64,000 nt of DNA from an uncultured Pseudobdellovibrionaceae bacterium. Lineage in GTDB: Bacteria > Pseudomonadota > Alphaproteobacteria > Micavibrionales > Micavibrionaceae. Below, piece after piece: positions 19,346 to 63,083 of the stretch (the stretch's first letter is position 1; each line of letters begins with the position of its first letter). The stretch covers positions 6,870-70,869 of the forward strand of contig CAYXSX010000001.1 in the NCBI GenBank assembly GCA_964467925.1. The letters are read 5' to 3'. The notes beneath the pieces were generated by a model that was not told the DNA's origin, did not search any database, and was given only the letters and a program-made list of their open reading frames with translations. A program made the translations under genes and the position numbers.

Positions 19346-19435
19346 GGAGGGGTGGCAGAGCGGTTGAATGCACCGGTCTTGAAAACCGGCGTGGGTTTAC
19401 GCCCACCGTGGGTTCGAATCCCACCCCCTCCGCCA
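19346..19435 (+). tRNA. tRNA-Ser: tRNA-Ser (anticodon UGA), CCA encoded
   Basis: Acceptor stem GGAGGGG/CCCCTCC. Anticodon stem CCGGT/ACCGG with loop CTTGAAA. Long variable arm (class II). T-arm GGGTTCGAATCCC. Confidence 0.95.
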
Positions 19436-28299: not shown

Positions 28300-30966
28300 A
28301 TGAGAACCGACACACCCAAAACAATTTATCTGAAAGATTACAAACCTTATCCCTTCGCTATCGGGCATCTGGATTTAACGTTCCAGATTCACGACGGCCA
28401 TACGGATGTATCCGCGCGCAGCGCCATTCGTAAAACCGATCAGACGGCAACGGAAATTTTCCTCAACGGTGAAGATTTGGAGCTTCTTTCCATCGAGATA
28501 GATGGTCGGGAGATCAACGATTACCGCCGTGACGAACACGGACTTTACATCCCCTGCCCGGCGGAAGGCTTTACTCTGGAGATCAAAACCCGCATCAAGC
28601 CGGAGGAAAATACGCGCCTCGAAGGTCTGTATAAGTCCGGGGATACTTACTGTACACAATGCGAAGCCGAAGGGTTCCGGCGGATTACATTTTATCCCGA
28701 CCGCCCCGATGTGATGACCACATTCACTACGCGCATAGAGGCGGACAAAAAATTTCCCGTACTTCTGGGCAACGGCAACCGTGTGGATGGCGGAGAGCTG
28801 GAAAACGGGCGTCATTACACAATCTGGGAAGATCCCTGGCCCAAACCCTGCTACCTGTTCGCGCTGGTGGCCGGAGACCTCACCCATATTCACGATACGT
28901 ACAAAACCGCATCAGACCGTCTGGTCGATCTGTATATTTTCGTACGGCCCGGAGATGAAAGCCAGTGCGCCCACGCGATGGAATCGCTCAAAAAATCCAT
29001 GAAGTGGGACGAGGACACATACGGGCTGGTTTACGACCTTGACGTATTCAATATTGTCGCGGTCAGTGACTTCAACATGGGGGCGATGGAAAATAAGTCG
29101 CTCAACATTTTCAACACCGCTCTTGTATTGGCGCATCAAGACACCGCTACGGATCAAGATTTTATGCGCGTGGAAAGCGTGATCGCGCATGAATATTTCC
29201 ACAACTGGAGCGGTAACCGCGTGACCTGCCGCGACTGGTTCCAGCTTTCACTCAAAGAGGGTCTAACCGTTTTCCGCGATCAGGAATTCTCAAGCGATAT
29301 GAATTCCCGCGCCGTGCAACGCATCGACGACGTGCAGCATTTGCGCAAATTACAATTTGCCGAGGATGCCGGGCCGCTCGCCCATCCCATCCGCCCGGAC
29401 AATTATATCGAGATCAATAATTTCTATACCATGACGGTGTACGAGAAAGGCGCCGAAGTCATCCGCATGTTCCGCACCCTGATGGGGCCGGAAAAATACC
29501 GCAAGGCGACCGATCTTTATTTCTCCCGCCATGACGGCCATGCGGCAACCTGCGAAGACTGGATTAAATGCATGGAAGAGGCTTCCGGCTTTGATTTCAG
29601 CCAGTTTCGCCTGTGGTACAGCCAGGCTGGCACGCCCGAGGTCACATTCAAAGGCGTACACGACATTAAGAACGGCGTATACAGCATTGAACTTTCACAA
29701 AAAAATCCCGATACACCCGGTCAGAAGGACAAGAAGCCCATGCACATTCCCGTGGCCATCGGCCTTGTGGATGAACATGGGGAAGACGTTGTGGAAGATG
29801 TGCTTCATCTAACTGAAGAAAAACAGGAATTTAAATTCGAAAACATATCCACAAAGGTGGTGCCGTCGGTGTTACGGAATTTCTCGGCTCCGGTGAAGCT
29901 CCGTACGTCTCTTGAAAATGCGGAATTGTCGTTTTTGATGCTGCATGACAAAGACGGATTTAATCGCTGGGAAGCCGGGCAGCAATTATATTTGCACATG
30001 CTGAATAACATGATTGATTCCTCCCCCTCTCGTCATCCTGAAGGGTCGAAGACCCTGAAGGATCTTCCCTCAACCGAACGAGATTCTTCAGCGCAAGCGC
30101 TTCAGGATGACATGTATAAATTCATGGAGACGATCGGCAAATTGATCGAACAGGGCATGGAGGCTGAAACCGATAAGGCGTTGCTCGCCCGCTCCCTCAC
30201 CCCGCCCGATATCGCCGCGATCGGTCAGAGCCGGGACGAAGTCGATCCCGATGCGATTTACAAGGCACGCCAAAGCTTGCTCGCCGCGATTAAACGCGAA
30301 CACCGCAAGGCACTCGATAAATTATATACCTCGTGCGAAGATAAGGGCGACTTCAGTATTACGCCGGAAGCCATGGGTGCCCGGGCGCTGCGCGCCGCCC
30401 TGCTTCGCATTTTGACCGCCACGCACGGCACTGGTTGTGCCAAGCTTTCCAAAGCGCATTATGATAGCGCGGATAACATGACCGACCGTATCGCGGCGCT
30501 TTCCGTACTGACCGACATCAACCAGCCGCAGCGTGAAGAGGCTTTCGATGATTTTTATGGACGGTATAAAAACTACCCACTGGTTGTAGATAAGTATTTC
30601 TCGTTGCAGGCTGTAGCAGTGCGTTCAGACATCATAGAATGCCTTAACAAACTCAAACATCATCCTGATTTTAATATCAAAAACCCAAACCGTGTGCGCT
30701 CGCTATACGCCGCTTTTGCCATGAACAACCTAGTCGGTTTCCATGCTGTGGACGGATCGGGGTATAAGTTTTTGGGCGATGCGATTGTAGAGCTCAATTC
30801 TATCAACCCACAGATTGCCGCGCGGCTGCTTACCCCTCTTCGCGAATGGCGCCGCTATACGTCGGATCGCCGCGAAAAGATGCAGGCCACGCTGGAACGC
30901 ATTCTTGAAACACCGAATCTTAGTCCCGATGTCTTTGAAATCGCCAGCAAAAGCCTTAAATCCTGA
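28300..30966 (+). CDS. pepN: Aminopeptidase N (M1 family)
   Basis: GAMEN and HEYFHNWSGNRVT...LKEG zinc motifs; 888 aa. Carries an in-frame palindromic insert at 30031-30111. Confidence 0.95.
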   Translation: MRTDTPKTIYLKDYKPYPFAIGHLDLTFQIHDGHTDVSARSAIRKTDQTATEIFLNGEDLELLSIEIDGREINDYRRDEHGLYIPCPAEGFTLEIKTRIKPEENTRLEGLYKSGDTYCTQCEAEGFRRITFYPDRPDVMTTFTTRIEADKKFPVLLGNGNRVDGGELENGRHYTIWEDPWPKPCYLFALVAGDLTHIHDTYKTASDRLVDLYIFVRPGDESQCAHAMESLKKSMKWDEDTYGLVYDLDVFNIVAVSDFNMGAMENKSLNIFNTALVLAHQDTATDQDFMRVESVIAHEYFHNWSGNRVTCRDWFQLSLKEGLTVFRDQEFSSDMNSRAVQRIDDVQHLRKLQFAEDAGPLAHPIRPDNYIEINNFYTMTVYEKGAEVIRMFRTLMGPEKYRKATDLYFSRHDGHAATCEDWIKCMEEASGFDFSQFRLWYSQAGTPEVTFKGVHDIKNGVYSIELSQKNPDTPGQKDKKPMHIPVAIGLVDEHGEDVVEDVLHLTEEKQEFKFENISTKVVPSVLRNFSAPVKLRTSLENAELSFLMLHDKDGFNRWEAGQQLYLHMLNNMIDSSPSRHPEGSKTLKDLPSTERDSSAQALQDDMYKFMETIGKLIEQGMEAETDKALLARSLTPPDIAAIGQSRDEVDPDAIYKARQSLLAAIKREHRKALDKLYTSCEDKGDFSITPEAMGARALRAALLRILTATHGTGCAKLSKAHYDSADNMTDRIAALSVLTDINQPQREEAFDDFYGRYKNYPLVVDKYFSLQAVAVRSDIIECLNKLKHHPDFNIKNPNRVRSLYAAFAMNNLVGFHAVDGSGYKFLGDAIVELNSINPQIAARLLTPLREWRRYTSDRREKMQATLERILETPNLSPDVFEIASKSLKS
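30031..30111. repeat. Palindromic MITE/REP-like element, type 1 (GTCATCCTGAAG ends), inside pepN
   Basis: Perfect 12-bp terminal inverted repeats. Inner inverted repeat TGAAGGATCT/AGATTCTTCA. By eye, about three-quarters identical to the reverse complement of 47011-47089. Confidence 0.8.
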
Positions 30967-31654
30967 TTTTTCGCTAGAGGAGGAACTCGGCGTTCCCGTT
31001 TGCGGCATAGACGAGGTCGGGCGCGGGCCGCTAGCCGGGCCGGTTGTCGCCGCGTGCGTTTTCATTCCACCGGAGGTGCGCAAGTCGGAATGGGTCGCCC
31101 ATATCCGCGACAGTAAAAAGCTTTCCGAAAAGAAGCTGGAAATGTTATTCGAGGCCATCACCGCACATTGCGTCTACGGTATTGCCGAAATCGCTCCGCA
31201 AGAGATCGACAGGATCAATATTTTACAGGCGGCCTTAAAAGCGATGAGCTTTTCTTTCTCATCATTCCTGCGCATGCAGGAATCCATTTCAATCAACTCA
31301 CCAAGCTCATCCATGGATCCCGGCCTTCGCCGGGATGACATTGTGGCTTTAGTCGATGGAAACCGCTGTCCTGAATTACCCTGCCGAAGCATGGCCGTCG
31401 TTAAAGGCGACGGCAAATCGAAATCCATCGCCGCGGCCTCAATTATCGCCAAGGTCACCCGCGACCGGATCATGCGAAAATTAGCGACAGAATTCCCACA
31501 TTACGGCTGGGAAAGCAATGTTGGCTATCCGTCAAAGGCACACCGGGACGCCATTCTCATCCACGGTATTACGCCCCACCACCGCCGTTCTTTTGCTCCG
31601 GTGAAAAATTTTTTAACGGAACAGCCTCGAGTCGAAACCCTGACTCAGCCTTAG
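30929..31654 (+). CDS. rnhB: Ribonuclease HII
   Basis: GIDEVGRGPLAGPVV, DSKKLS, VDGNRCP, KGDGKS and HRRSFAPV motifs. Start uncertain (ATG 30929 overlaps the pepN end). Carries an in-frame palindromic insert. Confidence 0.9.
   Translation: MSLKSPAKALNPDFSLEEELGVPVCGIDEVGRGPLAGPVVAACVFIPPEVRKSEWVAHIRDSKKLSEKKLEMLFEAITAHCVYGIAEIAPQEIDRINILQAALKAMSFSFSSFLRMQESISINSPSSSMDPGLRRDDIVALVDGNRCPELPCRSMAVVKGDGKSKSIAAASIIAKVTRDRIMRKLATEFPHYGWESNVGYPSKAHRDAILIHGITPHHRRSFAPVKNFLTEQPRVETLTQP
31261..31339. repeat. Palindromic MITE/REP-like element, type 3 (TCATTCCTGCG...CGCCGGGATGAC), inside rnhB
   Basis: Hairpins CCTGCGCATGCAGG and CCCGGCCTTCGCCGGG near the ends. Inner inverted repeat GGAATCCAT/ATGGATCC. 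Same architecture as 32874-32990. Confidence 0.7.
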
Positions 31655-31743: not shown

Positions 31744-32856
<1,113 letters not shown>

Positions 32857-32873
32857 CCCTCTGCCTTTCCGGC

Positions 32874-32990
32874 GTCCCCGCGAAAGCGGGGATTATACTG
32901 CCGGAATCCAGAAAAGACAGCCAGCGAAGCTGGCTGACACGTGGATCCCGTTCGTGTAAGTTCTGCTTCGCAGAACACCAACGGGATGAC
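32874..32990. repeat. Palindromic element, type 3, long variant
   Basis: Ends GTCCCCGCGAAAGCGGGGAT ... CAACGGGATGAC. Inner GGAATCCA/GTGGATCC. Extra central hairpin CAGCCAGCGAAGCTGGCTG. Confidence 0.65.
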
Positions 32991-33001
32991 GAAGGAGTAT
33001 T

Positions 33002-44203: not shown

Positions 44204-44287
44204 CGTCATTGCGAGGAGCGCCAGCGACGCGGCAATCTAGGATGACGCTTGTATCAGAAGATTGCTTCGCTTACGCTCGCAATGACG
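44204..44287. repeat. Palindromic MITE/REP-like element, type 2 (CGTCATTGCGAG ends)
   Basis: Perfect 12-bp terminal inverted repeats CGTCATTGCGAG/CTCGCAATGACG. Inner GCAATC/GATTGC. Homologous to 61378-61469. Confidence 0.8.
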
Positions 44288-45587: not shown

Positions 45588-45703
45588 GTCATCCTGAGTG
45601 GAGCGACCCCGGACTTTGATCCGGGGGAGCGCAATCGAAGGATCTCATAAAACCGTAAGGAGATCCTTCGACTTCGGCACTCCGTGCCTGCGCTCAGGAT
45701 AAC
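45588..45703. repeat. Palindromic element, type 1 long variant (GTCATCCTGAG ... CTCAGGATAAC)
   Basis: Imperfect terminal inverted repeats. Arm hairpins CCCCGGACTTTGATCCGGGG and GGCACTCCGTGCC. Central inverted repeat CGAAGGATCTC/GAGATCCTTCG. Confidence 0.75.
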
Positions 45704-47010: not shown

Positions 47011-47089
47011 GTCATCCTGAAGCGCTTGCGCTGAAGGATCTCAAGCGATTGAAACTAGATCCTTCAGGGCTAAAGCCCTTCAGGATGAC
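47011..47089. repeat. Palindromic MITE/REP-like element, type 1
   Basis: Perfect 12-bp ends GTCATCCTGAAG/CTTCAGGATGAC. Inner TGAAGGATCT/AGATCCTTCA. Inverted orientation relative to the pepN copy. Confidence 0.85.
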
Positions 47090-61377: not shown

Positions 61378-61469
61378 CGTCATTGCGAGGCCTGTTAAGG
61401 CCGAAGCAATCTAGGGATACAAACGCTATTTCTGGATTGCTTCGTCGGCTTCGCCTCCTCGCAATGACG
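61378..61469. repeat. Palindromic MITE/REP-like element, type 2
   Basis: Ends CGTCATTGCGAGG/CCTCGCAATGACG. Inner AAGCAATC/GATTGCTT. Lies between convergent genes. Confidence 0.85.
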
Positions 61470-62861: not shown

Positions 62862-62889
62862 GATATGTGCCGCCCCTTTGCGAAGAAAG

Positions 62890-63083
62890 AGTGCCGCGAA
62901 GCCGTGTAGAGTGGTATCCGCGTGAAGCCCGGTAATACCAGGTGGGTGCCGTATACTTCAGAAATCCACCGCACAATCCCCGCTAGGGGCAGCATTGGGA
63001 TATTCAAAGCAGGGACAGATCCCTAATGCGAATGCATCGGCCTCCGGGATAAAGTTTCTATCACGAACTTCGCAGCAAGGGTG
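62890..63083 (-). ncRNA. ssrS: Putative 6S RNA (boundaries approximate)
   Basis: 247-bp ORF-free spacer between zapA and the cyclo-ligase gene (the classical zapA-ssrS-ygfA synteny). The 5' segment GCUGCGAAGUUCGUG can pair with the 3' segment CACGGCUUCGCGGC as a closing stem. TATAGT/TATAAG -10-like hexamers at 63084-63096. Confidence 0.6.

Follow-up and report, generated by a model that had tools for sequence, protein, structure and literature searches.

A Probably Acquired, In-Frame CGTC-1-Type REP Dimer in the RNase HII Gene of a Micavibrio-Like Bacterium

Introduction

How does a gene for RNase HII come to be read in frame through a palindromic repeat, and does it still encode a full-length enzyme? 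The question is raised by a locus in a stretch of 64,000 nucleotides (hereafter the window) from the metagenome-assembled genome (MAG) of a Micavibrio-like alphaproteobacterium. An initial annotation, made from the DNA letters alone, had reported an unusually long loop in this protein, and alignment with the E. coli structure 7uwe bears it out, the distance from KAM to LVDGN being 34 residues here versus 14 there. It had also described two hairpins (CCTGCGCATGCAGG and CCCGGCCTTCGCCGGG) with an inner GGAATCCAT/ATGGATCC repeat, all of which are found in place. About 26 codons do coincide with the palindromic element, although the peptide string quoted for them was shifted by one residue.

We consider it very probable that two CGTC-1-type REP arms, joined as an inverted dimer, make up the segment, and that it was acquired by rnhB and has survived in frame in a working gene. 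Why the insert lies in this particular loop is a separate matter, to which the orthologues speak.

The genes at the locus are pepN (28300-30966), rnhB (30929-31654), a ccrM-type methylase gene (31774-32856) and folB, an order that is syntenic with several related contigs. The rnhB ATG is at 30929, so that the gene overlaps the 3' end of pepN by 38 nt, as it does in the orthologues. The nearest named relatives of the protein are from Micavibrio sp. MAGs. The features needed below are the following.

30031-30112, plus strand: in-frame pepN element SRHPEGSKTLKDLPSTERDSSAQALQDD, CGTC/TGTC-tagged, of a different family, its stems with tandem GA bulges
30929-31654, plus strand: rnhB (RNase HII), 241 aa, intact; Pfam PF01351 RNase_HII, E = 5e-39; 100% match to protein P0001
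31250-31259, plus strand: pyrimidine-rich leader TTTTCTTTCT, common to the L002 copy and absent from the empty L001 site
31260-31287, plus strand: left CGTC-1-type REP arm, cATC-ATTCCTGC-GCAT-GCAGGAAT-CCAT
31288-31312, plus strand: spacer, 25 nt, encoding ISINSPSS
31313-31340, minus strand: right CGTC-1-type REP arm, inverted, ATGG-ATCCCGGC-CTTC-GCCGGGAT-GACa
32868-32991, no strand assigned: composite CGTC-type element between ccrM and folB, its left arm degenerate

Structure of the Element

Read directly from the sequence, positions 31260-31340 consist of two hairpin arms, each of 27 nt, that stand inverted to one another on either side of a 25-nt spacer. The left arm has the degenerate tag CATC (CGTC in the orthologous locus L002), an 8-bp stem ATTCCTGC/GCAGGAAT, the loop GCAT and the tail CCA(T); the right arm has the tag TGTC, the stem ATCCCGGC/GCCGGGAT, the loop GAAG and again the tail CCA(T). 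Both stems are paired at 8/8 positions, the tags face outward, and the arms differ from each other by compensatory stem changes, which makes the pair a heterodimer. A single degenerate 27-nt pattern fits both arms, one on each strand, with a chance expectation of 0.01 matches in the window. Of 200 shuffles, 199 fold less well than the element region (z = -2.8). Translated in the frame of rnhB, the 26 codons at 31262-31339 read SFLRMQESISINSPSSSMDPGLRRDD.

The sequence TTTCTTTCTC lies directly upstream of the element in both the window and the L002 copies of rnhB, and from such sequence comparison the pyrimidine-rich leader is probably part of the inserted unit. Among 166 arms taken from the genome matches listed (described below), the eight positions outside the tag are C-rich (31-46%) and G-poor (10-19%). 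The downstream flank is purine-rich, is read as xEWHA, and tends to recur in the insert-bearing orthologues.

Family Identity and Distribution

CGTC-tagged REPs were defined by Di Nocera, De Gregorio and Rocco (2013, BMC Genomics 14:522; PMC3733652). According to that paper, a CGTC-1 unit opens with the tag CGTC (TGTC and CCTC being variants), followed by a stem of 8 bp whose first bases are AT, a loop of 4 nt and the tail CCA; the units mostly form inverted dimers with 20-100-bp spacers, and heterodimers occur. The same paper equates CGTC-1 with Neisseria dRS3 and Rickettsia RPE-6, places the family mostly in the Alphaproteobacteria with a record in Micavibrio aeruginosavorus, and describes intragenic REP dimers that encode 20-30 aa, many of them in genes for DNA synthesis and repair; it reports no dedicated transposase for CGTC REPs. 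The rnhB arms have every one of the structural hallmarks, that is, the tag, the AT-started stem, the 4-nt loop, the CCA tail and the inverted dimer. As for the tag, the right arm has TGTC and the left arm CATC, which is CGTC in L002, and position -1 is C in 66% and T in 30% of the 166 listed-match arms.

A scan with the arm pattern over 185,579 species genomes matched at least 120 stretches, and the matches listed span the Alpha-, Beta- and Gammaproteobacteria, Chloroflexota, Nitrospirota, Planctomycetota, Gemmatimonadota, Cyanobacteria and others. The stems of the 166 arms from these matches are TCCCGC/GCGGGA in 79, CCCCGC/GCGGGG in 22, TCCGGC/GCCGGA in 21, TCCTGC/GCAGGA in 19 and CCCGGC/GCCGGG in 14. 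Watson-Crick stems are kept in about 158 of the 166 across these five variants, the two free stem positions covarying. The matches listed also include 19 complete inverted dimers of 66-141 nt with unrelated spacers of 12-87 nt. At least 120 viral or prophage contigs in IMG/VR contain the 27-nt arm pattern as well (L210-L289 and further loci), some in several copies or as complete dimers, and such contigs could be the vehicle by which the arms spread across phyla.

Two of the matches display unusual arrangements. In a Nanoarchaeota MAG (L046:965-2716, minus strand, GC 0.37) a frame of 584 aa includes two arms read as MDSCFRRND...VIPAQAGIQ, which may be an in-frame copy far outside the Proteobacteria or a contamination of the bin. 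Flavobacteriaceae bacterium GF1 (L079:6602-7830) has five same-strand arm matches spaced every ~300 nt, unlike the usual inverted dimers. Long open reading frames across arms in GC-rich genomes from the same scan were Arg/Pro-rich, looked spurious and were set aside.

Within the 64-kb window there are three strict arms, and self-BLAST finds no second close copy of the rnhB element there. A loose tag-plus-hairpin scan gave 33 hits versus ~20 in Markov controls, barely above them, and perfect matches alone were used. Rfam searches, by gathering thresholds and by E-value, found no family or intron signature for the elements, and a hit of the intergenic element to RsmY (E = 0.9) was rejected as a chance match. 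Elsewhere in the window Rfam matches a 6S RNA at 62887-63081 (minus strand, 52.6 bits) and a tRNA at 19346-19432 (plus strand).

The rnhB Loop in Orthologues

That the extra loop segment was acquired, as the initial annotation had proposed, agrees with the closest orthologue (protein P0002 of locus L001, 83% aa identity), which lacks the palindrome and whose loop, ERAYQACGKFDHA, is a plain 13 aa long. With 13 aa in this protein and 14 aa in E. coli, a loop of the same length in palindrome-free orthologues is not borne out. A second species (protein P0003, locus L002) has the element at the identical position of rnhB and in frame.

A census of the loop drew on the 117 best parsable RnhB homologues. 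The loop measures 13-15 aa in 82 of them, while about 20 have inserts or remnants of inserts, and orthologues without a repeat-derived insert have loops of 12-19 aa. In an alignment of 107 sequences all internal inserts of at least 6 aa fall at consensus columns 113-119. The inserts are of at least five peptide or DNA kinds: SSR...RDD; SFL(R/H)MQES...MDPGLRRDD (the window and L002); SLRGAERRGNP...SRNDD; CHPE/CHSEG...LQD(G/N), which belongs to the family of the pepN element; the solo arm DPRFRGDD; and an unrelated type, SPFRERVDRAARGQGEG. Five further filled loci whose DNA was inspected (L003 and L204-L207) contain palindromes bounded by (C/T)GTCAT...ATGAC, some in degenerate form.

The insert-bearing proteins are scattered over the tree, and about 12 of the 20 have a nearest relative whose site is empty. 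Examples of such filled and empty pairs are P0005/P0006 (87% identical), P0055/P0091 (87.5%) and P0024/P0073 (83%), and the sisters P0014 and P0019 (85%) differ in their inserts. No such insert is present in any of 51 more distant RnhB genes, taken from the metagenome matches listed at 40-47% identity. Where filled and empty loci are compared (L204 with L208 and L205 with L209), the loop codons were replaced rather than cleanly interrupted, and remnants of second right ends are present. In P0043 (L205:834-968) eight codons are tandemly duplicated beside the insert (NGNRGWPALI / NGNRGWHALI), and P0045 has two successive right ends (RND...LRDD); both suggest that events at the loop happened in series.

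The history of the window's own insert is not simple. At 81.6% nt identity, the window's rnhB resembles the empty L001 gene more than the filled L002 gene (72.8%), and yet the element is shared with L002, which would imply a loss, two gains or an exchange of alleles. Compared with L002, the window matches at 53/54 positions in the arms (98%), at 15/24 in the spacer (62.5%) and at 430/591 in the rest of rnhB. Arms at 98% in a gene at about 73% identity point to selection on the arms or to conversion. That is, either the arms are selected as DNA or RNA hairpins, or they are kept uniform by conversion from other copies.

These patterns would suit an explanation in which CGTC-type REPs are directed specifically to this loop, guided by some feature of the local DNA or by a nuclease of the Ssn type, or in which the insert is kept because it is useful, for example as an mRNA or single-stranded DNA hairpin regulating rnhB, as a recombination boundary or as a peptide that modulates RNase HII. 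The clustering of inserts of so many kinds in one loop of Micavibrio-like orthologues, the palindromic or degenerate DNA of the further filled loci, the empty nearest relatives, the insert-free distant genes and the conservation of the arms within a gene diverged by 27% all speak for it, as do the enrichment of REPs in repair genes and a case of REPs at the same site of recB (PMC3733652). However, the three empty sites L001, L208 and L209 have no target motif that we could see in common, the pepN inserts of the same clade lie at two different sites (see below), and a compact enzyme of 200 aa may simply offer one permissive loop. We therefore hold targeting or usefulness to be possible but unlikely. 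The same applies to its most specific form, a rather doubtful one, in which the helix-to-strand loop of RnhB would be a preferred landing site for CGTC-type repeats, hit about ten or more times independently and sometimes serially, with the arms selected as nucleotides. The clustering and the conserved arms may reflect either targeting or function, or else a small, dispensable enzyme that has no other permissive loop, in genomes that are compact and rich in repeats.

A candidate for a shared motif, namely that the DNA coding for ALIDG mimics the CCTC-AT start of an arm, is true for L208, false for L001 and L209, and was rejected. No target-site duplication was found around the 19 complete dimers, and none is visible in the printed flanks of the window elements; a search for a motif at the target gave no hit either.

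The Gene Product

The initial annotation had placed the palindromic repeat in frame within rnhB; direct reading of the arms and the frame confirms this, and the gene is intact. The catalytic DEDD residues are present, D28, E29 and D143 being invariant and D161 nearly invariant among the 107 aligned orthologues. Outside the insert, the window and L002 genes are 82% identical at codon positions 1 and 2 and 55% identical at position 3, and this excess of third-position divergence indicates purifying selection. An AlphaFold2 model of the protein, made with the 107-sequence alignment, has a mean pLDDT of 90; it matches E. coli RNase HII (7uwe_C) with a TM-score of 0.87, normalised to the target, and its fold also matches the structure of T. 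maritima RNase HII. In the model the native helix is prolonged over residues 112-121 (pLDDT ~93), and a low-confidence coil follows at 122-134 (pLDDT ~65) before the ALVDG strand. From the sequence and this model, rnhB is predicted to still make a full-length RNase HII with the insert in it.

The description of rnhB as an essential-type gene was too strong, since rnhB is dispensable in E. coli. It is reportedly dispensable in M. smegmatis as well (PMC4300193). Such dispensability in several bacteria, together with the metagenomic assembly from which the locus comes, leaves some room for the idea of a pseudogene or assembly artefact, in which the insert would mark an inactivated or chimeric gene. 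This is very unlikely: besides the intact frame, the retained DEDD residues and the pattern of purifying selection, a second species (L002) likewise carries the insert in frame, the identical 241-aa protein is encoded in a second, independent assembly (Logan), and the model is confident. The variant considered at the outset, a pseudogene with a second intact copy elsewhere, fails on the same grounds, and rnhB is the only gene of its kind in the 64-kb window.

It is extremely unlikely that the element is removed after transcription or translation, as an intervening sequence or mini-intein, to leave a mature enzyme without it. Its stable hairpins could be substrates for an RNase III-type enzyme, but neither an Rfam nor an intron signature was found, 26 aa are far too few for an intein, and PMC3733652 cites reports that RPE-derived peptides are expressed in Rickettsia. 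Finally, an ordinary lineage-specific coding loop that is palindromic by chance, for which one might point to the variable loop length in orthologues without a repeat-derived insert, is effectively refuted by the chance expectation for the two arms, by their match to a family found in hundreds of unrelated genomes, and by arm DNA that is more conserved than the surrounding coding sequence.

Other Elements in the Window

The initial annotation was right that there is a second in-frame insertion nearby. The pepN element (30031-30112) is absent from the pepN genes of L001 and L002, and also from those of L204 and L207. Its relative in reverse complement, 85% identical over 60 nt, lies at 47011-47089 between rsfS and rlmH. 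In the pepN gene of L204 (372-3038; the P0005 genome) there is a different in-frame insert, DISHCFPRESGGLGPEKDPRLRGESS, at alignment columns 500-524, which from its peptide looks like a CGTC-1-type dimer, so that the pepN inserts of the Micavibrio-like clade (window and L204) occupy two different sites.

A related copy of the rnhB element had been reported 1.5 kb downstream. The element at 32868-32991 is not a close copy, with no similarity to the rnhB element detectable by BLAST, but it does belong to the same superfamily: its right arm has CGTC, an AT-stem and a CCA tail, with a 27-nt loop that contains a nested hairpin. It sits in a 145-nt spacer between ccrM and folB (32857-33001), two genes that overlap in L001 (12222-12225). 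Relative to L001, whose PepN is 92% identical, the window has thus gained three elements within 3 kb.

Four further palindromes of the form GTCAT...ATGAC are found at 44205-44286, 45588-45700, 47011-47089 and 61379-61468. The first three lie just 3' of the ends of open reading frames, between an atpF-like gene and proA, between proA and nadD, and between rsfS and rlmH, respectively. The density of elements in the window is about 1 per 9 kb.

Two in-frame copies so close together had suggested that the elements are selected to be translatable, possibly to the point of being free of stops in all six frames. The results do not agree with this suggestion. Two of the six frames are open in the pepN element, three in each of the rnhB and ccrM-folB elements, one in each of those at 44205-44286, 45588-45700 and 47011-47089, and two in that at 61379-61468, so that none of the seven has more than three and most frames contain stops. 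In the intergenic relative of the pepN element 5/6 frames are closed, and the conserved ATGAC end itself puts a TGA into one frame. The mean is 1.86 open frames for the seven window elements versus 2.23 in composition-matched (dinucleotide-type) shuffles, and 2.58 versus 3.25 for the 19 complete dimers from other genomes, whose lengths modulo 3 are distributed 7/5/7. With fewer open frames than in shuffles and even lengths modulo 3, there is no sign of selection for translatability, and the in-frame state is better explained by the purging of disruptive insertions than by a built-in property.

Proposed Origin

The following course of events would account for the locus. The dimer, together with the short pyrimidine-rich leader, would have entered the DNA for the loop that leads from the long helix (NILQA.LKAM) into the ALVDG strand with its catalytic Asp, and would largely have replaced the ancestral loop of 13-14 codons. 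The copy is by chance free of stops in the rnhB frame and the net change is a multiple of three, so that RNase HII would still be made at full length, about 21 residues longer than before. In the model the added residues form a three-turn extension of the helix and a flexible surface loop. The in-frame state would then be a matter of survivorship, disruptive insertions having been purged, while the arms would be constrained as nucleotides, as hairpins or protein-binding sites, and the spacer would drift. Survivorship alone leaves unexplained why all the inserts in the 107 aligned orthologues share one loop.

How the element moved can only be inferred, and the most likely route would be through single-stranded DNA intermediates or recombination between copies. 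No RAYT or transposase-like gene was present among the open reading frames inspected around the elements. In the literature, arms of this kind are partnered by Ssn, a GIY-YIG nuclease that binds the hairpin when single-stranded and cuts a few bases outside it. A search by regular expression and tblastn, covering the window and ~135 kb of Micavibrio-like loci, found no Ssn-like GIY-YIG gene. In the sample of arm-bearing loci, an Ssn-like protein is encoded in 9 of 241 (1.96 Mb), in one case 47 nt from an arm; in this sample Ssn-like genes are enriched near arms.

Significance

If the loop is a landing site, then integration would be site-directed, or a hairpin function would be retained in a DNA-repair gene, rather than insertion being random and followed by filtering. 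A loop with many independent inserts and empty sister sites is in any case a compact natural test bed for how CGTC/NTS repeats move, Ssn having been described only in 2025, and for why genes of replication and repair apparently gather such repeats. It also serves as a warning for annotation, in that 'insertions' of 20-30 aa in conserved enzymes of these lineages are repeat-derived.

Comparison with Known Systems

Two well-known kinds of mobile repeat do not fit. The element resembles REPIN/RAYT systems in that two inverted REP hairpins form a larger palindrome and in being non-autonomous and without target-site duplication. However, its tag is CGTC/TGTC and not GTAG, and PMC3733652 gives no RAYT association for it; membership was rejected on the tag and on the lack of a transposase-like gene among the open reading frames inspected around the elements. 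A MITE was rejected because no target-site duplication flanks the 19 complete dimers or is visible beside the window elements, and no parent IS was found.

The likeness to the Neisseria repeats is closer. NTS is a 28-nt extension of dRS3, CGTCATTCCCGCGMAVGCGGGAATCYRG (PMC11893778; Nat Commun 2025, 16:2388), and SsnA, a single-domain GIY-YIG nuclease whose genes are typically flanked by NTS-type repeats, binds NTS only as single-stranded DNA and cuts a few bases upstream, the upstream GTC and a C after the palindrome being needed for cleavage and binding (PMC11893778). By analogy, the rnhB arms would correspond to NTS in the ATyCC-N8-GGrAT core, in the GTC (right arm, and left arm of L002) and in the C after the palindrome. 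They differ from CGTCATTCCCGCGMAVGCGGGAATCYRG in stem and loop bases and in the last base of the tail. Moreover, the Neisseria repeats form intergenic arrays (NIMEs) and not in-frame inserts, and no ssnA gene was found in the window.

The Rickettsia palindromic elements (RPE) offer the nearest parallel in behaviour. Ogata et al. in 2000 reportedly described them in frame in genes for conserved proteins, where they are said to be tolerated at surface positions. Both cases involve an in-frame palindrome in a conserved open reading frame, absent from orthologues, in an alphaproteobacterial host with a compact genome. Here, however, the host belongs to a Micavibrio-like predator lineage and not to the Rickettsiales, and the insert is a short REP dimer and not the longer RPE-1. 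The link to RPE-6 comes from its equation with CGTC-1 in PMC3733652. The peptides DSRFCRND and VIPAKAGI given there for CGTC-1 of R. conorii match frames seen here.

CGTC-1 REPs themselves are the best match. As described in PMC3733652, they share with the rnhB insert the tag, the AT-started 8-bp stem, the 4-nt loop, the CCA tail, the inverted heterodimer and intragenic copies of 20-30 aa. The differences are that the window's left arm has a degenerate tag (CATC), that the list of intragenic copies in that paper does not include RNase HII or Micavibrio, and that a clade-wide hotspot at a single loop is not among the cases described there, the closest being recB, with insertions at the same site in two Xanthomonas species. 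In conclusion, the rnhB insert adds one case to the documented in-frame REP and RPE insertions, which include repair genes. The type of event is a known one, but by their sequences the relatives of this bacterium appear to have taken up different repeats at exactly this loop many times.
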